64,000 bases of DNA, taken from positions 1-64,000 of the IMG/VR virus record IMGVR_UViG_3300017963_000014, one strand, 5' to 3'. The notes under the pieces are model-generated. The model worked only from the letters and a program-made list of their open reading frames with translations. It was not told the origin of the DNA and did no database searches. This document shows, one piece after another, positions 2,877 to 15,376 of the stretch (positions are counted from its first letter, which is position 1; the number at the start of each line of letters is the position of its first letter). Source of the DNA: a virus. The position numbers and the translations under genes are program-made.

Positions 2877-4049
2877 CTAGAACTCCTCGTCCTCGCCGAC
2901 GTACTCCGCGCCGCAGCCCGGGTGCGGACACTTCAACGCGTCCGTCGGTACCTTCTCGCGGCACTTCGGGCAGATGTCGTACTCCTCGCCCTCCTTCGGC
3001 TCCCAGGCGAGCTCCTTCTTCGGCGGGTCCTTCTTCTTCCTCACCGTCTTCTTGACCCGCGGCGCCTTCGCCGGCTCCGGCTCCTTCTCGGTCTCCTTCT
3101 CCTCCTTCTCCGACTCCGGTTCCTTCTCCTCCTTCTCGGGCTCCGGCTCCTTCTCCGGTTCCTTCCTCGCCCTCGGCTTCGTCTTCTCCTCCTTCGCCTT
3201 CGGCTTCCGGAAGACCTCCCCGTCGTTCTCGATCTCGATCTCGAGGTCGTCGCGGACGAGGGCGTCGTTCAGGGCGGCGAGCATCGCGTCGGGGTCGGAG
3301 AGCTCGAGCTCGTCCGAGAGGTCGAGGCACTCGCCGTCGAGAAGCTTCATCAGCTCGTCGTCGTCCGGCCGCTCGGCCGGGCGGCCGCGGGCGGAGTACA
3401 TATCCGAGCCGCTCTCGCGGTCGTCGTACTCGATTAGGAAGGGGTAGGGCTCGAAGAAGGGGTTCCCCTTCTCGTCCCCGCTCTCGTCGACCTCGGACTC
3501 GATCTCCTTCCGGATCTCGGTCGCGAGCGACTTCGCGCCGGCGAGGACCTCGAGCGTCAGCTCCTTCGGCCGCTTCTTCTTCGAGTCCTCGACGAGGACG
3601 GCGGCGACGACGAAGTCGCCCTGCGGCTTTAGGTTCTTCCGGAAGTCGTAGCCCTTCAGGCCGAGGATCTCGCCCTTACAGTACTCGACCTTCCCCCGTC
3701 CCTTCCCGACCGAGAGGATCGTCTCGTCCGGGTCGATATCGTCGCGCGTCCGGAGCAGCTCGCGGAGCGCGGAGAACGGGCAGGCCTTCGGGTCGTCGGG
3801 GACGACGTAGGGGACGGCGACGACCTTCTTCTTCCCCGTCTCCTTCCCGTCGTCGTCCTTCTCCGCGACCTCGCGGTTGAAAAAGACCCGGAGACGGTCG
3901 TTTATCTCCGTATCCGGGTGAAGGTAGATCTTAGCGCGCGGCTTCCAGTCCATACGCTCGGACGAGAAGCTCTTCTGCCCGACCTCCCTCAGTCGGTCGA
4001 CCTTCGCCCGCGCGCGGGCGAGTCGCTCTTCCTTCGTCAGTTTCGGCAT
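2877..4049 (-). CDS. Putative gp32-like ssDNA-binding protein with K/E-rich linker and C-terminal zinc ribbon
   Basis: Position between PolB and RecA; CPF motif; acidic C-terminus EDEEF; CPKC...CPHPGC. Confidence 0.55.
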   Translation of the reverse strand: MPKLTKEERLARARAKVDRLREVGQKSFSSERMDWKPRAKIYLHPDTEINDRLRVFFNREVAEKDDDGKETGKKKVVAVPYVVPDDPKACPFSALRELLRTRDDIDPDETILSVGKGRGKVEYCKGEILGLKGYDFRKNLKPQGDFVVAAVLVEDSKKKRPKELTLEVLAGAKSLATEIRKEIESEVDESGDEKGNPFFEPYPFLIEYDDRESGSDMYSARGRPAERPDDDELMKLLDGECLDLSDELELSDPDAMLAALNDALVRDDLEIEIENDGEVFRKPKAKEEKTKPRARKEPEKEPEPEKEEKEPESEKEEKETEKEPEPAKAPRVKKTVRKKKDPPKKELAWEPKEGEEYDICPKCREKVPTDALKCPHPGCGAEYVGEDEEF

Positions 4050-4634
4050 TTACTCTCTCCCTTTCCGATTCGCTCGGTTCAGCATATTAGGGTCTAGCCC
4101 GGAGCGGGCTAGAGCTAGGTCGGCCTGCTTCCGGAGCGAGGCCATCCGGGACTGCCACGCCTCGTAGAGCTGCTTCGCGAGCGCCCGGTTCCGCTCGTAG
4201 ACTCGGCGGCGCTTCCGCCAGTCGCGGTAGGCGGGGACGTGCGCGGCGACCCAGTCCTCGACCATGTCGACGGTCACGTGCCCGCTCATTCGCGCGCCCT
4301 TCTTCGCCCTCTCGAGGGACTCGCGGGCCTCCCAGGAGAAGTTGCTGTACGCCGCCCGGTAGTGGAGGTCGAACTCGTCCGCCTCCTCGATCGCGGCCTG
4401 GAGGAGCATCCCCGCGCGGCGAAGGTTCGCCTCCGCGCGGTCGATCGCCCGAAGGACGTGCTCGACGCTCCCCCGCCCGTCGCCGAGGGTCAGGTCCCGC
4501 TCGAGGACGCCCCAGACCTCCTCGACCTTCACGTTCTTCAGGCGCTCGCCGAGGAAGGCGAAGCGCTCCGACCTCCGCTCGTGCTCCGCGAGCGCGGCGG
4601 CGGCGGTCCTCATACCCTTGACGCGAGGCGGCAT
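4050..4634 (-). CDS. All-helical protein, possible UvsY-like recombination mediator
   Basis: Long helices with T..MVE.WV...Y and A...R..SL pattern; adjacent to SSB-like and RecA-like genes. Confidence 0.4.
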   Translation of the reverse strand: MPPRVKGMRTAAAALAEHERRSERFAFLGERLKNVKVEEVWGVLERDLTLGDGRGSVEHVLRAIDRAEANLRRAGMLLQAAIEEADEFDLHYRAAYSNFSWEARESLERAKKGARMSGHVTVDMVEDWVAAHVPAYRDWRKRRRVYERNRALAKQLYEAWQSRMASLRKQADLALARSGLDPNMLNRANRKGRE

Positions 4635-4644
4635 ATACCCTCTC

Positions 4645-7512
4645 CTACCCCGCTCTATCCCGGATGCGCTTCGCCCGCGGAGCGCTACGGAGCTCCTCGA
4701 GGTCGGCCTCGAGGAGGATATCGCCCCTGTTCTCCCGGATCCGCGCGACCGCCTTCGAGACCCGCTTCGGGTCCGCGAGCCAGGTCCGGTAGCGGTCGAC
4801 GAGCTTCCGCCGACGAGCGCGACCCTTGATGAGCCACTTCGACCAGTCGATCACGGGGAAGCAGACCTCGAGGATCCGCTGCGAGGCGGGGAAGATCACG
4901 CGGTCCCAGTAGTACTCGGCGTCGTACGCGATCCCTCCGGCGGCGTCCTCGAAGTCACCCCGCGTTACGCCGGAGAGGTTCGGCTTCGTCCCGGTTACGA
5001 CGTACTCGACCTTCATTCCGACGTAGTACTCCCGCCCGGTCTCCCGAATCTCGGCCGCGAGCTTGACGTGCAGCGGCGTCGTCTTGTACCTCTCCGGGTC
5101 CTTCGATATCCCCTTCCCGATCGAGACCTCGTCGACGGAGAGCTCGCCCTCGGCGCAGCGTCGGAACTCCGGCTCGACGACCCCGCGCTCGATCTCGTCG
5201 CCCGAGAGTCCCTCCGTAAGGATCGCGTCCAGGACCCGCTGCTGGAGGCGGCGAGTCATCCCGGAGCAGTCGCTCCGCATCACCTCGAGGCCCTTAACCT
5301 CGACGTGATCCGTCTTCCCCCCCTTGTGGAGGAGCATCCTCCCGGCGTACCGCTTCTTAACGACGAAGAAGATCCGGTCGTAGACGTCCTCGAACTCGAG
5401 TTCGACCCGATTCCAGTCGAGGTTGCAGTTGAAGCCCCGGAGCTCCTCGAGGTAGCGCTCCTGGCAGTACGCGACGAAGCGGTTCCCGGCGTCGAGTATC
5501 TCCTCGATTCGGGCATCCTCGGAGGGCCAGGTCTTACCGGTCGGCGCGAGCTGAACGAAGACCGAGTCGGTGTCACCGTAGAGAACCGCGAACCCGTTCT
5601 CCTTCGCGTACCGCTCCGTTAGGCGGATGAAGTACCGCCCGCTGAGCGTGATCGCCTCCGCGAGCTCGGTGTCGTAGTACCGGGAGCGGGCGTTACCCAT
5701 GTCGCCGTAGAAGCTCAGCCCGAGGCGCTTGAACGAGTACGCGAGCCGGTAGTAGAGGAGGTAAAGGTCGTCCTGCGTCGTCCCGACCTCCTCGAGCCGC
5801 TTCCCCTGAAGGTCCGTGTACTTCTTCCGCCGCTCGAGCGTCCGGACGAACATCTGCGAGATATACCCCTCGCGGTCCCTCCGGAAGGTCGCGCCGCCCT
5901 TCTCGAGCGTCCCCCCGCCCTCGGTCTCGACCTCGACGAGGGGGCAGCGACAGAGCGAGTCCGGTCCGTTCTCCCGGAGGAACGCCTCGCGATCCTCGAG
6001 CTTGACGATCGTCTCGGGCGAGATGTTAAACGCTCGAACCATCGACGGGTAGAGACTCTTGAAATCTAAAGCCGCCACGTTCTCGTGCATCCCGACGACG
6101 GGGGGGAATACGTAGGCGCCCTCGTACTTCTCGGGCTCGGCGGAGGACCAGTACCGGGTCCGGAAGTGCTCCCCCTCCTTGTACCCCTTCTTTAGGAGGA
6201 GCTGGTCGATCTTCGTCGAGATGTTCCAGTCGTTCGCGAAGCCGTTCGCGATCCGGCAGAAGATCTGCTCGATCGAGACGAACCCCGTAAACTCCTCGAG
6301 CTTCCGGAGAATCCTCGCGTCGTACCGGTTATACTCCTCTAACAATTCGGGCTCGTACCGGTAGAGGTTGATAAACTTCGGTACCACCCCCGGGCGACGC
6401 TCACGGAAGGTCGTACGCCAGTCGATCTTCTGCATCTTCAGGACGCGCTCCCCGATCGAGTCGAGGGCGTAGGAGACGGCGTCCGCGCCCGCCCGCGTAT
6501 AATGCCGCTTGAAGACCGGTAGCGGGTCGGCGAAGAGGTGGTACCGCCAGTCGATCCAGATCCGGTGCTTCCGGAAGCGGTAGAAGATAACGGGAAAGTC
6601 GAATCCGAAACCGTTCCACGCGGCGAGGACGTCGTAGCGCTCGACGCACTCTCGCTTAAAGCGAAGGAGCATCTCCCGCTCGGCGGCGTCCGTCTCCTCC
6701 TCGAGTCGAAGGAACCCCGCGTCCGAGGGGTCGGAGTCGAAGCGGTCGCCCTCCCAGGCGATCGAGAGTATCCGGTTCTGCTCCTTCCTCTCGAACCCCC
6801 CGACGGTATCGTCGGTCTCGATGTCGAGAAACCCCATCCGGTACCGAGCCTGGATTTTTAAATCTACGTCCGTCAGGAACCGCTGCTTCGGCGTTAGGTC
6901 CGCCTCGAGAGGCTCAAGACCCTTCCGACGACACCACTCGACCGCCTCGTGAACAGGCTCCCACCGGTCGCGATCTCGGGGGAAGCGGAGCGCGCCCGGT
7001 CGCTCGCCGAGGAAGTAGGGGGTCGCCCAGCTAGAGGCGCGGTCGGGGTCCCCGACGTTCCGGAAGATCCGCTTGTGATCGATCTTCGGAACCCTCCGCG
7101 AGACGTAGACCCGTACGAACCTCTCGGGGTAGAGCGCGTCGGGCTCGACCCGCCGGGCGTGCCGACGGCAGAGCCAGTCCCAGCTCTCGCTCGGGATCCT
7201 CTCGAACTCCTCCCGCCGGAGGAGGAAGTACCACTCGAAGGGGTGAACCTCCTTAACCCGCCTCCCCGTCGCGGGGTCGCGGCGGAGGAGGACGACGTCC
7301 TCGCCCTCGGACCAGCCGTGGTAGTACTCCTTATCGGAGAAAAAGAACCGCTGGTCCTTCATCTCCTCGAAGTCGGCCGCGCTCTCGAGGTCGACCTCGT
7401 CGCGCGAGTCCCGAACCTCCTTCGAGTCGATCTCCTGTACGTAGAACTTCCGCTTCTCCGCGCCCGCGCCGAAGTCCCCTGCGATCCCCTGAGTGTCGGC
7501 GTCCCCGATCAG
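4645..7512 (-). CDS. polB: Family B DNA polymerase with 3'-5' exonuclease
   Basis: ExoI LDIETD, ExoII WNGFGFD, ExoIII YNRYD, motif A DFKSLYPS, motif B KRLGLSFYG, motif C YGDTDS, KKRY. Start uncertain: CTG 7512 or ATG 7362. Confidence 0.93.
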   Translation of the reverse strand: MIGDADTQGIAGDFGAGAEKRKFYVQEIDSKEVRDSRDEVDLESAADFEEMKDQRFFFSDKEYYHGWSEGEDVVLLRRDPATGRRVKEVHPFEWYFLLRREEFERIPSESWDWLCRRHARRVEPDALYPERFVRVYVSRRVPKIDHKRIFRNVGDPDRASSWATPYFLGERPGALRFPRDRDRWEPVHEAVEWCRRKGLEPLEADLTPKQRFLTDVDLKIQARYRMGFLDIETDDTVGGFERKEQNRILSIAWEGDRFDSDPSDAGFLRLEEETDAAEREMLLRFKRECVERYDVLAAWNGFGFDFPVIFYRFRKHRIWIDWRYHLFADPLPVFKRHYTRAGADAVSYALDSIGERVLKMQKIDWRTTFRERRPGVVPKFINLYRYEPELLEEYNRYDARILRKLEEFTGFVSIEQIFCRIANGFANDWNISTKIDQLLLKKGYKEGEHFRTRYWSSAEPEKYEGAYVFPPVVGMHENVAALDFKSLYPSMVRAFNISPETIVKLEDREAFLRENGPDSLCRCPLVEVETEGGGTLEKGGATFRRDREGYISQMFVRTLERRKKYTDLQGKRLEEVGTTQDDLYLLYYRLAYSFKRLGLSFYGDMGNARSRYYDTELAEAITLSGRYFIRLTERYAKENGFAVLYGDTDSVFVQLAPTGKTWPSEDARIEEILDAGNRFVAYCQERYLEELRGFNCNLDWNRVELEFEDVYDRIFFVVKKRYAGRMLLHKGGKTDHVEVKGLEVMRSDCSGMTRRLQQRVLDAILTEGLSGDEIERGVVEPEFRRCAEGELSVDEVSIGKGISKDPERYKTTPLHVKLAAEIRETGREYYVGMKVEYVVTGTKPNLSGVTRGDFEDAAGGIAYDAEYYWDRVIFPASQRILEVCFPVIDWSKWLIKGRARRRKLVDRYRTWLADPKRVSKAVARIRENRGDILLEADLEELRSAPRAKRIRDRAG

Positions 7513-8108
7513 GGACGAGCCGGTTCGGAACCCCTCCCCCGGGGGAGGAGCGCCCTCCGCCAGTTCTCGGCCTCCGTCTCGAGGCGGGTCCACTTCCGGA
7601 GGGTCGCGTTCGGGTGCCGGAGGAGCGTCGCCTCCGCCGTCGTCCCCTCGACCGTCCTCCGGAGCCCGAAGTCGCTTAACCCGAGGGCGACGCCCGCCGC
7701 CCTCCCGAGGACGAGGACCGTCCGGAGGTTCGGGAGTTCGAGTAGTTCCCTTCGAAGGTACCGTTCGGCGCACGTCTCAAGCTCCATTGGGGTCGGGGCG
7801 CGGTTCCCGGGGGTCGCGCACTTCAGGGCGTTCGTCGCGTAGCATCGCCCGAGGTCGAGACCCGAGCGGTCGGCGAGCTCGAGGAAGGCCCGGGTCGAAC
7901 CAGTTAAGAGTACGGGTTCCCCGCCCCGCCTCCGGGTCTCCGCGAGGAGGGGGAGGAGGAAGCAGCCCTCGACCCCGTCCACGGCCCGCCGCGAGGGGTT
8001 GATCCCGACGACCACGACCTCCGCGTCGTCGGGTCCGACGCCGACGCAGCGGGGGAGGCCGGAGGAACCGAGGGTACAGGCTCGGCAGGGGCGGGGGTCG
8101 CACCTCAT
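7509..8108 (-). CDS. Uracil-DNA glycosylase superfamily protein (Fe-S type)
   Basis: CRAC, G.GP.DA.VVVVGINP, YATNALKC, NRAPTPMELETC, LVLGRAA, HP. Confidence 0.85.
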   Translation of the reverse strand: MRCDPRPCRACTLGSSGLPRCVGVGPDDAEVVVVGINPSRRAVDGVEGCFLLPLLAETRRRGGEPVLLTGSTRAFLELADRSGLDLGRCYATNALKCATPGNRAPTPMELETCAERYLRRELLELPNLRTVLVLGRAAGVALGLSDFGLRRTVEGTTAEATLLRHPNATLRKWTRLETEAENWRRALLPRGRGSEPARP

Positions 8109-8653
8109 CGTCCCCCGGTCTCGAGGTGCAGGCTCCCGACGAGGAGCGAGAGCCGCGTCCCCCCGAACCGGTCGGGTAGCCCGGAGACCGCCGCACCGGC
8201 GGCTGCGAGGTTCCCGAGGAGGTCGAGCGGGAGGAGCGGGGCGAGGCGCTCCGAGCGCATGTACGCGACGACCTCGAGGTAGGGGCGCCGGAGGAGCTGG
8301 ATCGCGGTCGGGCAGGCGGGCGGGGGGAGGACCGATACGATCCGACGCGAGCTCGGCTCCTCCCTCCCGATACGCGCCCTGAGATTCCCCGCGTGCCGGA
8401 CGTAGTCCGAAGCCTCCGTCCGGAAGCGCTCCGCGAACCCGACCCCGGGCTCGAGGAGGTCGAGGGCACGTAGGATCGACGGGAGGTCCTCGAAGTCTAG
8501 GACCCGCGGGACGATGTACCTAAACTCGACCCCGCAGTTCTCGACGTAAGTACGCCCATCTACGCAGACGGACTTCCCCGAGGCCCGAAGCTCGACCTCC
8601 TTCCCCCCCGCGAGGACGAGGAGGTCGCGAGCGAGGTCGAAGTTAGTAATCAT
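8105..8653 (-). CDS. Minimal thymidylate-synthase (ThyA)-fold enzyme, predicted dCMP-modifying
   Basis: SSRR, PAC (catalytic Cys), Q, YMRS, LPLD and GSLH align by eye to ThyA DSRR/PC/Q/YQRS/LPFN/GDTH. Confidence 0.7.
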   Translation of the reverse strand: MITNFDLARDLLVLAGGKEVELRASGKSVCVDGRTYVENCGVEFRYIVPRVLDFEDLPSILRALDLLEPGVGFAERFRTEASDYVRHAGNLRARIGREEPSSRRIVSVLPPPACPTAIQLLRRPYLEVVAYMRSERLAPLLPLDLLGNLAAAGAAVSGLPDRFGGTRLSLLVGSLHLETGGR

Positions 8654-9657
8654 CGATTACGCCCCCGACCCTCGGCGAGCTTCTCGGCGTTCCCCCACTC
8701 GTGTGTCGCCGGGGGATCCCCCCGCTCGAGCGCCTTGAGTAACCCGAAGTATTCCCGACGAATCTCCCGCTCGAGGTCGACCTCGGGAAGATCGAGCCGC
8801 TCGCGAACCGCCGCGACCTCCTCGAGGTCGTGTACGAAGTCCCCGAGGTAATCGAGGTCGGGTCGGTAGACCGGGGAGATCGGGACGTCGGAGACGAAGC
8901 GGACGATATCGACGATCTGTCCGTAAGGAAGCCAGCGACCGGAGGCGGCGGGGACTCGACCGGAGAGCCGGACCTCGACCGCGCGGCGGACGAGGAGCGA
9001 TATCCAGGAGTGCGGCGTAACCTCCTTAACGTTCGCGGGGCTAAGGGTGATAAAGGGCTCCCGCTCGTAGAGTCCGGCGGCGCACTTCAGGCAGTCGGCG
9101 ACGCAGGAGTCGCCGTCGCGGATCCCGCCGAAGCCAAACGAGGGGTAGACCTGCAGGAGGAGCTCCGGTTCCCGGGCGAAGGCGTCGACCGCGAAGAGCC
9201 GCCCGGCGAGCTTCGTCAGACCGTAGCGAGTCCGGGGGTTCGCGGGGGTTCGAGACATCGAGATCGGCTTCGCGAGTCCGTAGTCGTCGGGCGAGAGCTC
9301 GGAGGCGGTCGCGAGGAAGACCGTGTAGATCCTCCGCTCCGCTAGAATCCGCGCGAGATCGCGGGGAGCGGCGGCGTTGCAACTCCAGGTCTCCTCCGCG
9401 AGAGTCTCGCAGCGGGTCGTCCCGACGATCGCCCCGGAGTGAACGAAGACGTCCGGCTTCGGGTCGAGGGCGGCTAGCCACTCGAGGTAGCCCTCGCAGC
9501 GGAAGTCCGGCTCGAACTCGCCGGTCGAGGGACTACGCCAGAGTGCGAATAGACGACGATCGGTCGGAGGCTCGAGGCGCTCCCAGCCGAGGGAGGAGAA
9601 CTCGCGGTCGATCTCGCTACCTAGCATCCCGCTCGTACCGGTTACGACGTACCTCAT
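8650..9657 (-). CDS. NAD(P)-dependent NDP-sugar epimerase/reductase (extended SDR, RmlD/GalE-like)
   Basis: TGTSGMLG, PDVFVHSGA, catalytic YGLTK. Confidence 0.85.
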   Translation of the reverse strand: MRYVVTGTSGMLGSEIDREFSSLGWERLEPPTDRRLFALWRSPSTGEFEPDFRCEGYLEWLAALDPKPDVFVHSGAIVGTTRCETLAEETWSCNAAAPRDLARILAERRIYTVFLATASELSPDDYGLAKPISMSRTPANPRTRYGLTKLAGRLFAVDAFAREPELLLQVYPSFGFGGIRDGDSCVADCLKCAAGLYEREPFITLSPANVKEVTPHSWISLLVRRAVEVRLSGRVPAASGRWLPYGQIVDIVRFVSDVPISPVYRPDLDYLGDFVHDLEEVAAVRERLDLPEVDLEREIRREYFGLLKALERGDPPATHEWGNAEKLAEGRGRNR

Positions 9658-10142
9658 CTTCGGAAACCCTCCTCCCCGTTAACGTAGACGACGTCGACTA
9701 CACCGCCGACCCAGGCGAAGACCTCGTCGAACGCGAGAAACTCGGCGTTAAGTCGCCCGTATTCGATAACCTCCCCCCGTCGCTCGATCCGGTTCCGCGC
9801 GGTCTCGAGCGAACTCGTAACGCGGTAGATCTGCTCGACCTCCTCGAGCTGCTTCGCCCGCGCGGCCGGGTTCGCTAGAAACGCCGGGATCGGTCGCTCG
9901 AAGAGCTTGGCGAAGACGAGGGTCGAGACCCAGCCGCGGTCGGCGACGAGGTCGACCCGGGGCGCGAGCTGCTCGAGTAACGAGGCGTGCGCTACGTACC
10001 CCCCGATCCGCGTCTCCTCCGAGTCGAGGCGGAGCCGAACCTTCGCGAGGTCCTCGACGTACGGGATCCCGAGCCGCCGCGCGAGGAGGCGGGCGAACGT
10101 CGTCTTTCCGACCCCGTTCGGACCCTCGACGAGGTGAAGCAT
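9654..10142 (-). CDS. dNMP kinase (thymidylate-kinase-like)
   Basis: P-loop EGPNGVGKTT, DRGWVS, RIERRG lid. Confidence 0.8.
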   Translation of the reverse strand: MLHLVEGPNGVGKTTFARLLARRLGIPYVEDLAKVRLRLDSEETRIGGYVAHASLLEQLAPRVDLVADRGWVSTLVFAKLFERPIPAFLANPAARAKQLEEVEQIYRVTSSLETARNRIERRGEVIEYGRLNAEFLAFDEVFAWVGGVVDVVYVNGEEGFRR

Positions 10143-11242
10143 CAGAGCGCCCTCGGCGCGACCAAGTTCCCGGAGGCTCCTCGGGTAAATCCCGCGAACT
10201 GAGCCTCGTACTCGTTCCGCTCTACGATACTCTCCGGGGTATACCCGAGGAGGAAGCGGTCGCGGGTCGTGAGTCGGAAGTCCTCGGGTCGGTCCTCGCC
10301 CGCGGTCGGGATCCGGATCCCGAGCTGCGCCGCGATCGTCTCGCGGTCGGAACAGCTCTCGTTGAACTCCGCGTACTCGTAGTCGAGCTCGGGGTTCCCC
10401 GGGGCGCTTCGGACCGGGTTTCGACCGCAGCTACGGAAGAGGCAGCCGAAGGCCTCCGAGATCGCGTGAGCCCGGTGGTAACAGCAGGCGCCTACGAAGT
10501 CGCAGCGTGGGCGGAGATACGCGGCGAGGAGCGGGAAGGCGTCGGACTTCGCGAGGCGGTCGCGGAGGAGCCAGGCGACGGCGACGGTGTCCTCCGCCTC
10601 GGAGAAGGTCATCCGACGGGCGCAGAGGTTCTTAAGCGCCGCGTAGTTAACGGAGCAGACGAAGCGGTGAACGACCGAGATCGGGAGCGCCGTCCTCGCC
10701 TCCTGCCAGCTCCCGCGCCCGATCTCGACGATCCTCCGGTACACGAACTTCGCCTCCCTCGCGAGGGCTACGAGGTCCGAGAGTTTACCCGCGCTCCGGA
10801 ACGTCGCCTCGTGGAAGCGAAACGCGATGTCTAGGTGGTTGTTATCGCGGGTCCCCATCGACGCCGCGACGAACCCGAGGCGGGCGCGAACGATCTGGTC
10901 GAACGCCCACCTCGAGAGATTCTCGACCGAGAACGTAAACTTCGGCGCCTCGAGCGCGAGCGGTAGCGCCTGCCCCGCGAGAACCGCCCGAACGACCGCC
11001 TCCCGCGACTCGGGCGCGGCGTCCTCCCAGCGGTCGAGGGAGGAGGAGCTCCAAGTCCCCCAGGTCGCGGTCGCCATGCAGTACATCGCCTTATACGGGT
11101 TCACCGGTCCGTCGAGGAGGTCGACGCGAATCCCCTCGACCCCGCGGTAGAAGCGGGTCTCGAACGGCGGGGCGGAGGAGGGGGCGGTCCCCATCAGTTC
11201 GCGGAGGCGGGCTAGTTCGGCGACGCGGTTCTCGGTACTCAT
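10142..11242 (-). CDS. Divergent ThyX-fold flavoenzyme
   Basis: LE..KFTFSVENLSR....QIVRAR...TR, EARTALP, VNYAALKNLCARR, Cys-rich tail. Start moved to ATG 11242 (ATGA overlap, GGAGG upstream). Confidence 0.8.
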   Translation of the reverse strand: MSTENRVAELARLRELMGTAPSSAPPFETRFYRGVEGIRVDLLDGPVNPYKAMYCMATATWGTWSSSSLDRWEDAAPESREAVVRAVLAGQALPLALEAPKFTFSVENLSRWAFDQIVRARLGFVAASMGTRDNNHLDIAFRFHEATFRSAGKLSDLVALAREAKFVYRRIVEIGRGSWQEARTALPISVVHRFVCSVNYAALKNLCARRMTFSEAEDTVAVAWLLRDRLAKSDAFPLLAAYLRPRCDFVGACCYHRAHAISEAFGCLFRSCGRNPVRSAPGNPELDYEYAEFNESCSDRETIAAQLGIRIPTAGEDRPEDFRLTTRDRFLLGYTPESIVERNEYEAQFAGFTRGASGNLVAPRAL

Positions 11243-12216
11243 CTCTTCTTCCTCCCTTCGGCTAACTCGAGGACCACCGCGAGCGCCTCGCGCGGCCCGG
11301 GGACGCGGACGGCGCCGACGAGCTCTACCCCGGCGTTCGCCTCGCCCTCTACGAGGACGACCGGGACGCCGGCGGCGAGGACCTCGCGCGCGACCGCGGG
11401 GTCGTCCTCGACGACCGCGACGGTCCCGGGGAAGTCCCGGAGGATCCGCCGGTGTTTCTCCCGGTCGAAGAGGACGGCGTCCGCGCGGAGGGCGGAGCGG
11501 TTGAGCCACTCGAGCGTATCGGCGTAGATCCGGGATACCCTCCAGTAGGGGCGAGCGGAGAGGACGACCGCGGTTAGACCGGCGGCGCGGAGCCCGTCTA
11601 AGAGCTCCCGCGCCCCCTCCCGAACCCCCTGCTCACGCTTCGCCCCGCTCTCGCGGTAGCGGTCCTTTAAGTTCTGGTACCCGAGCGCCCCGAGCTCCCG
11701 TCGGAGCGCGGCGGTCGAGGAGAACACGAACTCGCCGGGAACCTCCCAGTCCTCGACGTCGAGGCGGGCCCAGTCAAGGAAGCAGCGGGGGTAGTCGTTA
11801 AGGACGCCGTCTAGGTCGACGGCGACGACCGGGTCCTCGGGGGAGAGCGCGCGGAGGCGGGCCTCCATCGCGTAGCGGTACTCGACGACCTCGCTCTTCC
11901 GCTCGAACTCCTCGAGGATCTCCCCGGGGGAGAACCCCCAGACGTTCGCGAGCCCGAGGAGGAACTTAAGGCAGTCGACCCACTCCTCGAGGACGTTCCC
12001 GCGGACGACCGGAGTAGTCCGCCGGTGGTGCATCTTCCAGGAGGTCTCGCCGAGTAGCTCGTGAAGCTCCCCCTCGAGGTGTAGGACGAAGTCCTTCGAC
12101 CACGCGACGCGCTCCGCCGGGGATAGCCGCGCGATCTCGTAGCCGAGGTCCGAGAAGAACCGCTCGTTGAACCGCCTCTGCCGCGCGAGGATCCCCTCGA
12201 GGGAGGTAGCCTTCAC
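11239..12216 (-). CDS. Fusion of all-alpha dNTP pyrophosphatase (dimeric dUTPase/dCTPase-like) and HAD 5'-nucleotidase
   Basis: N-terminal EGELHELLGETSWK...LEEWVDCLKF; C-terminal VDLDGVL, LSAR, K, VEDD. Start moved to GTG 12216 (GTGA overlap). Confidence 0.8.
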   Translation of the reverse strand: MKATSLEGILARQRRFNERFFSDLGYEIARLSPAERVAWSKDFVLHLEGELHELLGETSWKMHHRRTTPVVRGNVLEEWVDCLKFLLGLANVWGFSPGEILEEFERKSEVVEYRYAMEARLRALSPEDPVVAVDLDGVLNDYPRCFLDWARLDVEDWEVPGEFVFSSTAALRRELGALGYQNLKDRYRESGAKREQGVREGARELLDGLRAAGLTAVVLSARPYWRVSRIYADTLEWLNRSALRADAVLFDREKHRRILRDFPGTVAVVEDDPAVAREVLAAGVPVVLVEGEANAGVELVGAVRVPGPREALAVVLELAEGRKKR

Positions 12217-13136
12217 GAGAGAACCCCCGCGACGTCGTGTAACCGTATCCGGTGGTCCCACCTAGCGAACCTCCCGACGTGCCGGACGAGCCCCGCGTAC
12301 TCGACCTCCGACCGCGGCTCCCCCCGAACCTGGAGGCGGAGCGGCCCGACGAAGTTCGTATCGAAGACGTCCTCGCAGAACCCCGGCGCGAGGACCTCCG
12401 CGGGGTCGCGGTTAAACTCGTAGACGAACCCCTCCCCCTCCGGGAGGAAGGTGACGCGATCGAAGGGGACGCGCGGGTTAGAGACGTAGAGGTAGCGGAG
12501 ACCGGCGGAGGCGGCGTCCCGGACGGGGTCGGCCCAGGCGCGGGCGGCCCCGAGGAACCACTTCGGGCCGGCGTCCCAGGTCCGCTCGAGCTTAGCCGGC
12601 GTTAGCGAGTCGAAGACGGGCGCGGGGAGCGTGTTGACGACCTCCGAGACCGGCAACTTACTAACCCCGTCGAGCTCGACGTCTACCCGTCGCTGAAGTA
12701 TCCAGGGCGCGATGGACGTGACGCGCGCACGGAGTAGCTCGGAACGGACCGTTAGCGCGCGCTCGAGCGCCCGCGTAAGCTCCTCTACCGAGGTACGGAA
12801 GCAGCGGAGGACGCCGGGGGTACCGGAGGAGACCGCGGATCTCGGCGCCCGGCTAGGGTCCCGTCCGCTCCGCCGGAGGTACTCCCGCCGCTCGAGCGGC
12901 GTCGGGTCGGAAGTAACACCGGAGTCGGTCCAGAACCCGAAGCGGACCTCCTCGACCTCGCTCGATAGCCCGAGGTCCTCGAGGACGCGCCCGAGCGCGA
13001 GGGACTCCCAGAGGTAGGAGGGGGCGAGTCGTCGGAGGAGGACGGAACCGCCGAAGATCTCGCCAACGCAGGGGACGCGGAGGAGGTACGCCGCGAGGAG
13101 GCCGACGGGTCCGGCGCCGAGGACGAGTCGACTCAT
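12213..13136 (-). CDS. FAD-dependent enzyme, UDP-galactopyranose mutase (Glf)/HemY-like
   Basis: GAGPVG dinucleotide fold, VVNTLP, PFDRVT, C-terminal GRFARW. Confidence 0.65.
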   Translation of the reverse strand: MSRLVLGAGPVGLLAAYLLRVPCVGEIFGGSVLLRRLAPSYLWESLALGRVLEDLGLSSEVEEVRFGFWTDSGVTSDPTPLERREYLRRSGRDPSRAPRSAVSSGTPGVLRCFRTSVEELTRALERALTVRSELLRARVTSIAPWILQRRVDVELDGVSKLPVSEVVNTLPAPVFDSLTPAKLERTWDAGPKWFLGAARAWADPVRDAASAGLRYLYVSNPRVPFDRVTFLPEGEGFVYEFNRDPAEVLAPGFCEDVFDTNFVGPLRLQVRGEPRSEVEYAGLVRHVGRFARWDHRIRLHDVAGVLS

Positions 13137-13885
13137 CGGCCGCCTCCACCGTAAGCCTCGAAGACCCTGCGCGCCAACTCGAGCGCGGTCTTCTGGAGGT
13201 CCCCGACGTACACCCAGTTCGTCCTCCCGAAGTGCCGCTTCCGTCGCTCCTCCCTATCTAGATGGAGGAGCCCGGGAACCTTCTCCCGCTCGAAGAAGTC
13301 GTCGTCGACGTTAAACTGAAGGTAGAGCCCGCGGAACTTAACCGCGAGCCGACGTACGCCCTCGGGGTCGAAGAACGCGACGTACCGCGGGTTCTCACGA
13401 GGCTTCCAGCCGTCGGGGAGATCCTCCTTAAGGCGCCGAATTATCTCCTTAGCCTCGATCCCCCCGAGGTCACCGTCGCGCTTCCGCTCGCGCCTCCTCC
13501 TCTCGGCCTCCTCGACCGCGGCCCGGAGCGAGTCCGCGTCCCTCCCCCGGGTCGAGACCCCGAGGTTCCGCGCGCGGGAGCGGAGCTCCTCGAGCGAGAG
13601 GGCGGGCTCGCCCTCGTCGTCGCCGAGGACGGCGCCGCAGGCCCAGCAGCGGGGGGAGGTAGCGTTTATCGGGGAGTTACAGCGCCCGCAGGAGTACGAG
13701 AGGTCCTCCCCCCGGGCGCGGAGCGCCTCGAGGACCTCCGCGTACGCGGACTTCAGCGTCTTCGCCCCGACCTCTAGCCCCTCGAACTCCCGGGCGTTCC
13801 GCCGGAGGGTCGGGAGGGCGAGGTACCTCCAGCGCGGGCCCTCGAGCTCCGGGGGGATCGACCCCGTTCCCTTCGCCTTCTTCAT
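13133..13885 (-). CDS. Zinc-ribbon hypothetical protein
   Basis: CGRC...CWAC; coiled-coil middle; alpha/beta C-terminal domain; GAGGAGG RBS. Confidence 0.65.
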   Translation of the reverse strand: MKKAKGTGSIPPELEGPRWRYLALPTLRRNAREFEGLEVGAKTLKSAYAEVLEALRARGEDLSYSCGRCNSPINATSPRCWACGAVLGDDEGEPALSLEELRSRARNLGVSTRGRDADSLRAAVEEAERRRRERKRDGDLGGIEAKEIIRRLKEDLPDGWKPRENPRYVAFFDPEGVRRLAVKFRGLYLQFNVDDDFFEREKVPGLLHLDREERRKRHFGRTNWVYVGDLQKTALELARRVFEAYGGGGR

Positions 13886-13897
13886 CTCGCCTCCTAG

Positions 13898-14515
13898 CTA
13901 GGCTCTATCTAGGAATGTACCCGGGGCGAACGCCCGGCTCGCTAGCTCCCCGAGGAGTAGCTCGACCGGGGGCGCCCGCTCCTCGTCGAGTAGCGCGCGC
14001 CGGAGGAGGACGAGCGCCTCGCCCCGGAGCCGCTCGCCCGCGCGCCGGAGCGCGAGGTCGAGGAGGAGCCGGTCCTCTACCCCGCGGTCGGCGCCGAGCC
14101 GGCGGTCGAGGTCCGCGGGGTCGTCGAGGCAGGGCTCGAGGGAGATCGACTTCGAGAACGTCCGCCGGACGGCGAGGCGGGCGGACTCCTCGCAGAAGTG
14201 CGGGAGCTCGACGAGCTCGACCGGTCCCCTTACGCGGTGCCGCTCCCTCCCGTGCCTCCGGATCGCCGCGCGCTCTAGGAAGGTCCGGCCACAGGGGCAG
14301 AGGTAGACGTAGCGGCGGGCGGCGCGCGAGAGCGCGAGTAGCCCCTCGTTAACGGCGTCGTCGACCTCCGCGAGGACGTTCGCCGAGCCGAAGGAGCGGC
14401 GGGCGGATACGCCGCGGGCGAGGAGCCAGGGTCGGTAGAGGGCGGCGACCGGCGAGAAGTTCCGGTCGGTCGGGTCGGAACGGTAGCGAAGCAGGGCGCG
14501 TTCGGGCTCCTCCAC
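13898..14515 (-). CDS. Sigma-70 region-2-like protein with inserted C2H2 zinc finger
   Basis: VDDAVNEGLLALSRAARRY resembles region 2.2; followed by YLCPCGRTF....IRRHGRERH. Confidence 0.55.
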   Translation of the reverse strand: MEEPERALLRYRSDPTDRNFSPVAALYRPWLLARGVSARRSFGSANVLAEVDDAVNEGLLALSRAARRYVYLCPCGRTFLERAAIRRHGRERHRVRGPVELVELPHFCEESARLAVRRTFSKSISLEPCLDDPADLDRRLGADRGVEDRLLLDLALRRAGERLRGEALVLLRRALLDEERAPPVELLLGELASRAFAPGTFLDRA

Positions 14516-14562
14516 GGGGGGTCTCCTTCGGTATTTTGTTCTTTCGTCGACGGCGAGGCCGG

Positions 14563-14592
14563 ACTATACGCCCGCGCCTTTCCGCCTGTAAA
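14563..14592 (-). promoter_or_regulatory. Sigma70-type promoter for the sigma-like / modification / polymerase operon
   Basis: TTTACA-N18-TATAGT on the minus strand in an intergenic gap. Confidence 0.55.
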
Positions 14593-14602
14593 GTACTATC
14601 TC

Positions 14603-15352
14603 CTAACTCTCGTCGCCCCCTACGCTTTCCCCTACCCCGAGGCTCGCGGCGGTGTTCAGGACCGAGCGGACGGAGGAGGCGTACCAGCGGGCGCCGGCCT
14701 TCGGGCACTCGCCCGCGTCGTTCAGCTCGGCGGCGATCCGGGAGTACGAGCCGCCGGCCTCGCGGAGCGCGCGGATCCGCTCGAGGAGCGCGGTCTCCGC
14801 GGGGTTCGGAACTAGGCGCTCGCCCTCGCGGTCGAAGCCGAAGGGGGTCCGACCGTAGACGCGGCGGGTTCGGCGACAGCGGGCGGTCGCCTCGCGGCAG
14901 CGGGCGGAGATCATCTCGCGCTCCATCTCCGCGAGGGCGGCGAGGATCGACATCGCGAACCGGCCGTGAGGGGTCGAGCCGTCCATCTGCTCGCGGACCG
15001 AGACGAACCCCCGCCCCGCGTCCCGGAGCCCCGAGACGACCGAGAGGAAGTCGAGCGTCGAGCGCGAGAGCCGGTCGATCGAGTAGACGATCAGCGCGTC
15101 GCCCTCGGCCTCGACCCGCTCGAGCGCCTCCCGGAGCGCCGGCCGCTCGAGCGTCTTCCCCGAGAGCCCGGCGTCGACGAGGACGTCGACGAGCTCGCCG
15201 TCGACGAGCTCGACGTAGGCGCGGCACTTCTCCTCCTGCGCCCCGAGCGAGACGCCCCCGCGGGCCTGCTCCTCTGTACTCACACGCAAGTACGCGTAAT
15301 ATTTAACTTTTCCCTTCGGAGCGATCGTCTTTACCCTCGGGCTTCGCTTCAT
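14603..15352 (-). CDS. Serine recombinase (resolvase catalytic domain plus short recombinase domain)
   Basis: YLRVST, D.GLSG...RP.L, DRLSRS, AEMERE.IS.R, GRTPFGF, IAAELN..G, W.ASSV. Confidence 0.92.
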   Translation of the reverse strand: MKRSPRVKTIAPKGKVKYYAYLRVSTEEQARGGVSLGAQEEKCRAYVELVDGELVDVLVDAGLSGKTLERPALREALERVEAEGDALIVYSIDRLSRSTLDFLSVVSGLRDAGRGFVSVREQMDGSTPHGRFAMSILAALAEMEREMISARCREATARCRRTRRVYGRTPFGFDREGERLVPNPAETALLERIRALREAGGSYSRIAAELNDAGECPKAGARWYASSVRSVLNTAASLGVGESVGGDES

Positions 15353-15376
15353 CTTGATCCTCCGTCTCTACTTTAC

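Follow-up and report, generated by a model that had tools for sequence, protein, structure and literature searches.

In pyrimidine exclusion of the SPO1/PBS2 type, a dTTPase or dUTPase acts together with a dTMP nucleotidase, and gp56 of T4 is a dCTPase. T4, SPO1 and RB69-type phages pair a nucleotide modifier of the thymidylate synthase (TS) fold with a kinase and a deoxynucleoside triphosphatase (dNTPase). TS-fold enzymes that hydroxylate dCMP with the help of a flavin are known as well (PMC13326640). All of the phage pyrimidine replacements that we found in the literature have a ThyA-fold enzyme as their starting point. ThyX is represented among the repurposed enzymes that we found described by a single neofunctionalised paralogue, PolB of polyoxin biosynthesis (PMC5954106). 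Here we analyze a block of eight co-directional genes at positions 4645-13136 (minus strand) of a 64,000-nucleotide stretch of viral DNA (IMG/VR record IMGVR_UViG_3300017963_000014), hereafter the window. The block encodes a divergent ThyX paralogue, a minimal ThyA-fold protein (mini TS), a flavoprotein that resembles UDP-galactopyranose mutase (UGM), a fused pyrophosphatase and phosphatase, a nucleotide kinase, a short-chain dehydrogenase/reductase (SDR), an Fe-S uracil-DNA glycosylase (UDG) homologue and a family B DNA polymerase.

What is the biological function of this block? We propose that it may be a pre-replicative pyrimidine-nucleotide modification set that is tied to the replisome genes of the phage and would make a non-canonical pyrimidine for DNA, a reading drawn from the sequence to which we assign a probability of about 0.5. 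In the proposed scheme, the fusion of a MazG/dUTPase_2 pyrophosphatase with an NT5C-like nucleotidase would strip the canonical pyrimidine deoxynucleoside triphosphate to the monophosphate and possibly to the nucleoside. The ThyX paralogue and, where it is present, the mini TS with its Cys nucleophile and cytosine-type Asp would then alter C5 of the pyrimidine deoxynucleoside monophosphate (dNMP), with the folate/FAD site of canonical ThyX probably no longer in use. Flavin or redox chemistry would come from the UGM-like flavoprotein together with an NAD(P)H reductase, which in the window is an RmlD-like SDR, and the Tmk-like kinase would re-phosphorylate the product. Finally, a lineage-specific polymerase with an altered motif B would incorporate the product, and the Fe-S UDG homologue would police uracil. 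Known members of the ThyX, ThyA-fold and UGM families use covalent flavin or Cys chemistry at the pyrimidine C5 or at an anomeric carbon.

The logic of a dNTPase, a TS-fold modifier and a dNMP kinase beside a polymerase is that of the group of T4 gp42 and RB69 gp48 (PMC13326640). The general logic is as in T4, SPO1 and RB69/DLP3, and what differs is the cast: a ThyX paralogue whose cofactor site is rebuilt, in many cases accompanied by a minimal ThyA fold, plus a reductase and a UGM-like flavoprotein. An earlier note on this DNA took the enzyme set to be undescribed. In our literature searches, neither this ThyX clade nor its linkage was described, and to that extent the claim stands. Part of the set is known, however, since reports from 2025-2026 cover flavin-dependent TS-fold dCMP 5-hydroxylases as well as a UDP-Gal mutase that a phage encodes within a DNA-glycosylation cluster (PMC13326640). 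If the ThyX-fold protein is a modifier, it would represent a second, independent origin of DNA base modification and would extend flavin-dependent nucleotide chemistry beyond methylation and the recent dCMP hydroxylation. A new base would in turn bear on how phages evade restriction and CRISPR and on sequencing bias in viromes, and it could provide enzymes for DNA labelling.

The ThyX paralogue and its linked genes

The ThyX-like gene (10142-11242) encodes a divergent ThyX paralogue of 366 residues with a Cys/His-rich C-terminal extension. Pfam Thy1 (PF02511) matches it with an E value of 8e-11, at 42-44 bits against a cut-off of 24.8, and the equivalog TIGR02170 is not reached (27.4 bits against a cut-off of 87.9). 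In profile searches of the PDB, the profile of the ThyX-like family matches ThyX of M. tuberculosis (E 3.8e-5); a PDB search with the single sequence gives no match. The clade is large: the protein collection contains over 150 clusters of it, for the most part from contigs of 60-110 kb.

The active site was compared by aligning five canonical phage ThyX proteins with the divergent clade. Canonical GH, EH, SH and RHR become AL, EA, FD and RAR in the clade, with the loss of four conserved His residues; likewise, Q-E-S-x-R-Y becomes S-x-G-T-R-D and HAQWQ becomes EAEDT. R111, R119, R121, R132, R183 and R210 occur without exception in both the canonical and the divergent proteins. From the T. maritima and M. 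tuberculosis structures, we take these invariant Arg residues to be the ones that bind the nucleotide (the dUMP phosphate and base). Because the Arg residues are retained and the four His residues replaced, the nucleotide site appears to be kept and the cofactor side rebuilt. Relative to the described enzymes of T. maritima and M. tuberculosis, the protein thus shares the Thy1 fold and the invariant pyrimidine-nucleotide Arg residues, whereas the signature RHR-x7-S-x-RY reads RAR-x8-GTRD and the His residues of GH, EH and SH are gone. The clade also differs by the addition of ~130 C-terminal residues, in which C248, C254, H257 and C273 are invariant, and by a consistent linkage of its gene to MazG/NT5C and UGM-like genes.

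As a separate observation, the ThyX-like genes of two related viral loci (related loci and genomes are cited here by L and G numbers) carry intein-like insertions, one in L028 at 7624-8756, with Hint_2 and LAGLIDADG_3 matches, and one in L025 at 7609-8045. Inteins are typical of essential replication or nucleotide genes.

Does the divergent protein stand in for canonical ThyX? A Pfam Thy1 search was performed on 11 genomes that carry the ThyX-like gene, including that of the window; six of them were judged complete. A canonical ThyX (233-275 residues, 97-163 bits) is encoded beside the clade member (44-62 bits) in five of the 11 genomes (G001, G002, G004, G005 and G008). Both types occur in four of the six complete genomes, and the divergent gene occurs alone in the genome of the window and in G007. 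In L021, the canonical and divergent genes lie 4 kb apart with a DnaE polymerase between them. Given this coexistence in five of the 11 genomes, we regard the ThyX-like protein as a neofunctionalised paralogue, and the presence of two ThyX-type genes in one compact phage genome argues against simple redundancy. Polyoxin PolB is likewise the product of a second ThyX-type gene alongside a canonical one (PMC5954106). The remodelled ThyX fold that the earlier note described is therefore upheld by the Thy1 match, the loss of four His residues across the clade, the TIGR02170 score below cut-off and the paralogy.

The linkage of these genes was surveyed by profile searches and tblastn in 21 viral loci plus the window, which represent ~19 distinct lineages of 23-71% GC. 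MazG and/or an NT5C-like HAD protein is encoded near the ThyX-like gene in 17 of the ~19 lineages, the UGM-like flavoprotein in 16, the mini TS in 10 and the SDR in six. The gene order is shuffled between lineages, for example between the window and L028, and the neighbouring polymerase is of family B in the lineage of the window and DnaE in L016 and L021. L018 has the fullest set, combining in one block dUTPase_2, a short TS positive for PF00303, the ThyX-like and UGM-like proteins, NT5C, a Tmk-like kinase, the mini TS and a dCMP deaminase. In L021 (34% GC), an aldo-keto reductase, a DUF5651 protein and a radical-SAM/SPASM enzyme are encoded between the MazG-HAD fusion and the ThyX-like gene (4312-6914). 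The close relatives of the window share a constant core that consists of a 250-residue open reading frame (ORF), the flavoprotein, the fusion protein, the ThyX-like protein, the kinase and the polymerase. Since this synteny is kept in related viral contigs, the gene block is not a product of chance.

An alternative that we consider rather unlikely is ordinary thymidylate supply combined with pool sanitation. In that case, the ThyX-like protein would make dTMP, the MazG protein would feed it as a dUTPase or dCTPase, the kinase would make dTDP, the UDG would remove uracil, and the flavoprotein, SDR and mini TS would be accessory or unrelated. Such a role fits a genome that has neither ThyA nor a second ThyX and that encodes, beyond the window, a dCMP deaminase (genome positions 87875-88669) and a class II ribonucleotide reductase (RNR; 89540-92284). 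It also fits the Tmk-like kinase, the complete set of nucleotide-binding Arg residues in the ThyX-like protein and the lack of a PF00303 match in nine of ten related genomes. However, canonical ThyX coexists with the divergent protein in the five genomes above, four of them complete, and the divergent protein has lost the four conserved His residues and scores far under the equivalog cut-off. Moreover, its gene is persistently linked, across distant phages, to genes for the UGM-like flavoprotein, the NT5C-like nucleotidase and the Cys/Asp mini TS. The paralogy and the conserved linkage bear out the earlier view of the block as a nucleotide-modifying module and not just a source of dTMP.

Several points nevertheless weigh against a modified base as the product. 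The genome of the window has no other thymidylate synthase, yet a dCMP deaminase, a class II RNR and a Tmk-like kinase are present, so the ThyX-like protein could simply make dTMP in this phage. The fused nucleotidase, unless selective, would also destroy the monophosphate substrate of the proposed modification. No transferase or other post-replicative modifier was found among the larger ORFs of the genome that were scanned. The neighbourhood recurs in many phages, but the eight genes do not always occur together: among the close relatives, the SDR is missing from L004 and L005 and the mini TS is found in L001 only, being missing from L003, L004 and L005, and the eight genes are therefore no obligate unit. 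In addition, this stretch is listed solely in assembled contigs of two metagenome studies, one of sediment and one of seawater, with neither raw reads nor an RNA data set among the entries.

Do cultured phages carry the module? A tblastn search of 50,697 phage records with the ThyX-like, UGM-like and mini TS proteins gave no match, barring a weak Bacillus one for ThyX, and megablast of the region against the same number of records gave no match. The HAD half of the fusion protein matches 83 actinophage records with Gordonia, Mycobacterium, Streptomyces, Microbacterium, Arthrobacter and Nocardia hosts. The distant actinophage relatives are missed by searches at the BLAST level, as they were found only via the HAD domain and profiles. 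In Streptomyces phage Dryad, a "phosphatase" gene adjoins an "oxidoreductase" gene whose product matches the UGM-like profile in three collinear pieces (E 6.5e-5). The Dryad "ThyX-like thymidylate synthase", encoded near DnaE, matches the clade profile (E 2e-16) and has RSR, no GH and a Cys-rich tail; no mini TS turned up in the Dryad locus (14.6 kb). For Gordonia phage Xenia2, the published announcement reports the same set with a MazG-like protein and a FabG-like reductase, without functional interpretation (PMC11385102). The actinophage set of Dryad and Xenia2 (oxidoreductase, phosphatase, MazG-like protein, FabG-like reductase and ThyX-like thymidylate synthase beside DnaE) thus resembles the module of the window, with a HAD domain that is 33% identical (E 2e-18; PMC11385102). 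It is, in contrast, much more distant and has MazG and HAD as separate genes. Over 80 cultured actinophages carry a related set under the bare annotation "oxidoreductase, phosphatase, ThyX-like", and its function can therefore be tested directly with phages in collections. At its broadest, our tentative suggestion is that a widespread viral pathway, built from a rewired ThyX, a minimal ThyA fold and a UGM-like flavoprotein, could construct a previously unknown pyrimidine base without folate in marine and sediment phages and, distantly, in cultured actinophages.

The mini TS, the flavoprotein and the nature of the product

The mini TS gene (8105-8653) encodes a TS-fold protein of 182 residues, identified from its AlphaFold2 (AF2) model and family profile, with a catalytic Cys and a cytosine-type Asp. 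Only 11 representatives of the family were found among 1.84 billion proteins in an exhaustive HMMER search. A word-based homologue search matched the protein to itself alone, a two-sequence profile returned noise from the PDB, and a scan of viral contigs with the single protein found none. The same scan with a five-sequence alignment recovers the L001 contig alone, and the 11-sequence alignment is too divergent for scanning. PF00303 is absent from the protein and from a six-frame search of the genome. The AF2 model (pLDDT 94.4) matches the TS family only in Foldseek, with 396 PDB structures at E<=0.001, and structural alignment gives Z scores of 10.8-12.5 over ~150-160 residues. The top rows are the dCMP hydroxylase AfhB of phage HY126 and the CMP hydroxymethylase MilA, a ranking that is only a hint because ThyA is tied within one Z unit.

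The family profile of the mini TS matches T4 dCMP hydroxymethylase (E 3.6e-4), with C148 as the counterpart of its invariant Cys and D179 as that of its invariant Asp (D144). R103, R104, C114, R133, S134, D144 and a His are invariant in the 11 family members. The position of T4 D171 (E. coli D169) is occupied by R136 and by R, C, L or D across the family, and that of T4 D145 (E. coli L143) by Pro; the T4 register comes from the family-profile alignment, and the E. coli ThyA numbering (D169, L143 and N177) is assumed. The protein terminates six residues past the conserved His, and the C-terminal lid is absent. From these features, the mini TS is predicted to be a Cys-dependent, cytosine-type TS-fold protein without the folate-contacting Asp and without the C-terminal lid. 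The minimal ThyA fold with a cytosine-type Asp that the earlier note had recognized is thus confirmed by the high-confidence model, the exclusive TS matches and the alignment with T4 D179. The earlier remark that both proteins lack folate-contacting residues is likewise supported, as the mini TS lacks the Asp at the D169 position and the lid, and the ThyX-like clade lacks the four conserved His residues.

The mini TS resembles T4 gp42 and the group of RB69 gp48, DLP3 gp80 and HY126 AfhB in its TS fold, catalytic Cys and RR and RS phosphate binders. It also shares with T4 gp42 and the 5-hydroxy-dCMP synthases the Asp at the N177/D179 position, which confers dCMP specificity. In contrast to these enzymes, it has 182 residues only and is undetected by PF00303. 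Asn at the E. coli D169 position (D169N) is a recognition signature of the 5-hydroxy-dCMP synthases (Lee et al., PMC13326640). The mini TS departs from RB69 gp48, DLP3 gp80 and AfhB at this position, which is Arg or variable rather than Asn, and at the L143 position, which is Pro rather than Asp or Glu.

Two side observations concern the neighbourhood of the mini TS gene. In L003 (12634-14939), the mini TS and UDG genes are replaced by two unknown ORFs (227 and 138 residues) and a PAPS-reductase/DUF3440 (IbrA-like) gene directly upstream of the polymerase gene. In L028 (51% GC), a DUF4326 protein (E 2e-26) is encoded at 3645-3935 between the SDR and the mini TS.

The flavoprotein gene (12213-13136) encodes a UGM (Glf)-like FAD protein of 307 residues, as judged from its N-terminal GxGxxG motif, family profile and AF2 model. 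A profile of 10 orthologues matches A. fumigatus UDP-galactopyranose mutase (AfUGM) with an E value of 5e-6 in three collinear pieces, which include the LYxxxxxxPFxR segment (AfUGM Y317 and R327) and the GRFxxW segment (GRFGSW). Y217 and R227, invariant in the 10 family members, align to the AfUGM segment ...LYFPEDNCPFYR... with its diphosphate-binding Arg and Tyr. The AF2 model (pLDDT 87.7) finds UGM as its best structural match (Z 21.2, root-mean-square deviation 3.3, 293 of 307 residues aligned), followed by PPOX (Z 18.9) and amine oxidases (16-17). Thus, the protein has in common with UGM the FAD-binding GxGxxG, the equivalents of Y317 and R327 and the GRxxxW motif. Unlike UGM, it has no match to Pfam GLF at E<=1, nor to any other Pfam family, and it is ~60-200 residues shorter than the matched solved UGM chains (361-519 residues); furthermore, the Z scores of PPOX, amine oxidases and renalase trail that of UGM by no more than 2-4 units. 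The Glf-like flavoenzyme of the earlier note therefore holds as a resemblance, with UGM as the best profile and structure match, but not as membership of the UGM family.

The SDR gene (8650-9657) encodes an extended, RmlD/epimerase-like SDR of 335 residues that matches PF01370 (40.3 bits) and PF04321 (30.1 bits) in its N-terminal half and contains GxxGxxG and YxxxK. It falls below the dTDP-4-dehydrorhamnose reductase equivalog (TIGR01214, 36.2 against 224), and its orthologue in L028 matches RmlD_sub_bind (E 5e-23). In other lineages, the reductase slot is held by non-orthologous enzymes, either an aldo-keto reductase or a FabG-like protein, which suggests a generic NAD(P)H-dependent reduction of a flavin or of a C5 substituent rather than the tailoring of a nucleoside diphosphate (NDP)-sugar. 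Hence, the RmlD/Epimerase type of the SDR agrees with the earlier assignment, but the proposed NDP-sugar role does not fit an enzyme that occurs in six of 19 lineages and is substituted in others.

Is a sugar attached to the base? The earlier note envisaged a glycosylated cytosine, akin to the bases of RB69, DLP3 and RL38JI, for which dCTP would be purged, dCMP would be altered at C5 without folate, and an NDP-sugar, possibly a furanose, made by the SDR and mutase would be attached. We consider this improbable. The dCMP-type Asp of the mini TS, the RmlD-like SDR and the proximity of the flavoprotein to UDP-galactopyranose mutase, with the diphosphate-binding Arg equivalent kept, all speak for it, and phages of the RL38JI type use a phage UDP-Gal mutase for hexosylated 5-hydroxycytosine (PMC13326640). 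However, a glycosyltransferase was not found in the genome with PF00534, PF00535, PF13692, PF09198 and PF11440 or among the ~60 larger ORFs scanned, and neither was a nucleotidyltransferase or a sugar kinase; in this respect, the window phage differs from systems of the T4 gp42 and RB69 gp48 type, which have glycosyltransferase or sugar-activation genes. The D169N signature is also absent from the mini TS, with Arg at this position and a variable residue in the family, and the L143 position is Pro (PMC13326640). The substitution of the SDR by an aldo-keto reductase or FabG-like enzyme, the short chain of the flavoprotein and its lack of a GLF match stand against the sugar as well. Sugar attachment is thus not borne out by the search for a transferase.

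Which base would be modified in the proposed pathway? The dUTPase_2 family includes the T4 dCTPase, and this counts for cytosine, as do the Asp of the mini TS and the coexisting canonical ThyX, which would still supply dTMP. Uracil or thymine is indicated by the uracil-type Arg kept in the ThyX-like protein, the Tmk-like kinase, the NT5C-like nucleotidase, the dCMP deaminase and the location of the UDG beside the polymerase; a link of this kind between UDG and polymerase is described for phages with T-modified genomes (PMC13697223). On balance, cytosine may be slightly favored. The firmer claim of the earlier note, that cytosine rather than uracil is the target, is not borne out, given the uracil-type Arg of the ThyX-like protein and the accompanying dCMP deaminase and Tmk-like kinase.

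The product might instead be a free modified nucleoside or nucleotide that acts outside DNA as an inhibitor, a signal or an anti-defence compound, comparable to the nucleoside-antibiotic pathways with polyoxin PolB or MilA. Polyoxin biosynthesis is where the only characterized neofunctionalised ThyX paralogue found in the literature acts (PMC5954106), the mini TS has MilA near the top of its structural matches, and an NT5C-like domain would release a nucleoside. We nonetheless regard such a product as very unlikely, because the module adjoins a replicative polymerase in every lineage examined and includes a dNMP-type kinase, and no N-glycosidase or peptide-ligation genes were seen.

The remaining genes and their genomic setting

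The fusion gene (11239-12216) encodes a 325-residue protein that joins a MazG/dUTPase_2 nucleoside triphosphate pyrophosphatase to an NT5C-like HAD phosphatase (PF08761, phrog_173 and phrog_415). The dUTPase_2 match (PF08761) reaches 27.4 bits against a cut-off of 22.9 and is found in 10 of 14 orthologues. NT5C (PF06941) is matched by six of the 14, with a best E value of 2e-8, and leaves the window protein itself unmatched. Among the catalytic residues, those of ExxE...ExxD (E50, E53, E78 and D81) are invariant or nearly so in the 14 orthologues, and DxD (D134-x-D136) is invariant. The matches and the catalytic motifs in both halves substantiate the pyrophosphatase-HAD fusion reported earlier. 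In a textbook comparison, the combination of an all-alpha nucleoside triphosphate pyrophosphatase with a deoxypyrimidine 5'-nucleotidase-like HAD resembles SPO1/PBS2 exclusion and T4 gp56. Unlike in those systems, both activities reside here in one polypeptide; they are split in L018 and L016.

The kinase gene (9654-10142) encodes a P-loop nucleotide kinase of 162 residues that matches AAA_33/AAA_18 and phrog_761 (thymidylate kinase, E 2.5e-10). Its likeness to Tmk is weak in the window, but the ORFs that occupy its position in L001, L018 and L016 show it more clearly (Pfam Thymidylate_kin, 1e-9 to 2e-6). The dNMP kinase of the earlier note is accordingly retained as a P-loop, Tmk-like kinase.

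The UDG gene (7509-8108) encodes a family-4-like Fe-S uracil-DNA glycosylase homologue of 199 residues (PF03167, 50.6 bits). Its translation contains the Fe-S cysteines as CxxC...Cx15C, and it scores below the family-4 cut-off (TIGR00758, 50.5 against 125.3). Motif A reads GINPS; in canonical family 4 enzymes, it is GE(A/G)PG. The PF03167 match and the four Cys residues agree with the Fe-S glycosylase identified before.

The family B DNA polymerase gene (4645-7512, with an uncertain start and a frame open to 7773) matches PF00136 (158 bits) and phrog_262 (245 bits), and its translation displays exonuclease motifs I-III and motifs A and C. Motif B reads KRLGLSFYG, with Leu for the Asn of K-x3-N-S-x-Y-G. 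The same motif is found in L001, L003 and L005, which are all of the close relatives that are readable, and the altered motif B noted earlier is thereby corroborated. The polymerase gene of L004 contains an intein-like insertion at 14179-15362.

Where does the polymerase start? The junction with the UDG gene was compared in the window (7440-7800, minus strand), L001 (13650-13850), L004 (12060-12260) and L005 (12020-12220). Within 75 nt of the UDG stop codon, the window offers no ATG, GTG or TTG in the polymerase frame, and the only canonical start in this frame is GTG 7773, which lies 261 nt upstream, inside the UDG gene. In four lineages, the polymerase frame keeps the peptide F-R-x-G-x-x-L, which begins seven or more codons ahead of the UDG stop. 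This stop is overlapped by a CTG in the window, L001 and L005, and L004 has a CTA in its place. The arrangement could reflect a non-canonical start, an overlap of ~260 nt that begins at GTG 7773, or a -1 frameshift through which UDG and polymerase would be fused.

The eight ORFs are tightly packed and have a coding-type GC content at third codon positions (GC3, 0.83-0.89). Overlaps of 4 nt (ATGA or GTGA) are found at six junctions: 250-residue ORF to flavoprotein, flavoprotein to MazG-HAD fusion, fusion to ThyX-like, kinase to SDR, SDR to mini TS and mini TS to UDG. The ThyX-like and kinase genes overlap by 1 nt. These overlaps place the real starts of the fusion and ThyX-like genes at 12216 and 11242, respectively. 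The eight overlap-coupled genes described earlier were all recovered in identity by profile or fold searches and have overlaps at their junctions, except that the UDG-polymerase junction lacks such an overlap.

The ORF upstream of the flavoprotein gene (13133-13885, minus strand, with an ATGA overlap) encodes a 250-residue protein with a Zn-ribbon-like CxxC...CxxC that has no match in Pfam and PHROG searches. It is kept upstream of the UGM-like gene in L001-L005, and it shows weak collinear similarity (E 0.005) to the ORF at the same place in L021. The protein may be a member of the module.

The window covers the first 64 kb of a viral genome that is complete at 101,796 bp, has direct terminal repeats and contains 69.5% GC. 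Because a portal protein, a prohead protease and an amidase/peptidoglycan-binding endolysin are among its products, the genome belongs to a tailed phage of a bacterium. The block sits in a replication module with a Metallophos nuclease, a RecA-like protein, the family B polymerase, a resolvase, a UvrD-type helicase, a DnaB helicase and an SF2 helicase. Further genes beyond the window encode a 5'-3' exonuclease, RuvC and an SMC-like ATPase.

Two further observations concern the genome as a whole. Its dinucleotide odds ratios are 0.29-0.33 for CA/TG, 1.35 for CG, 1.7 for GA/TC and ~1.0 for TA. The CA/TG ratio is 0.7-1.25 in relatives that carry the module, and 0.68-0.85 in the close relatives, in which TA is depleted. 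CA/TG depletion was considered as a trace of the module and rejected, because the extreme depletion is confined to the genome of the window and relatives with the module do not share it. Lastly, a second short Rossmann protein of 214 residues with an Epimerase-type N-terminus is encoded outside the module, near the endolysin gene, at genome positions 93860-94504 (L007 11860-12504, minus strand).

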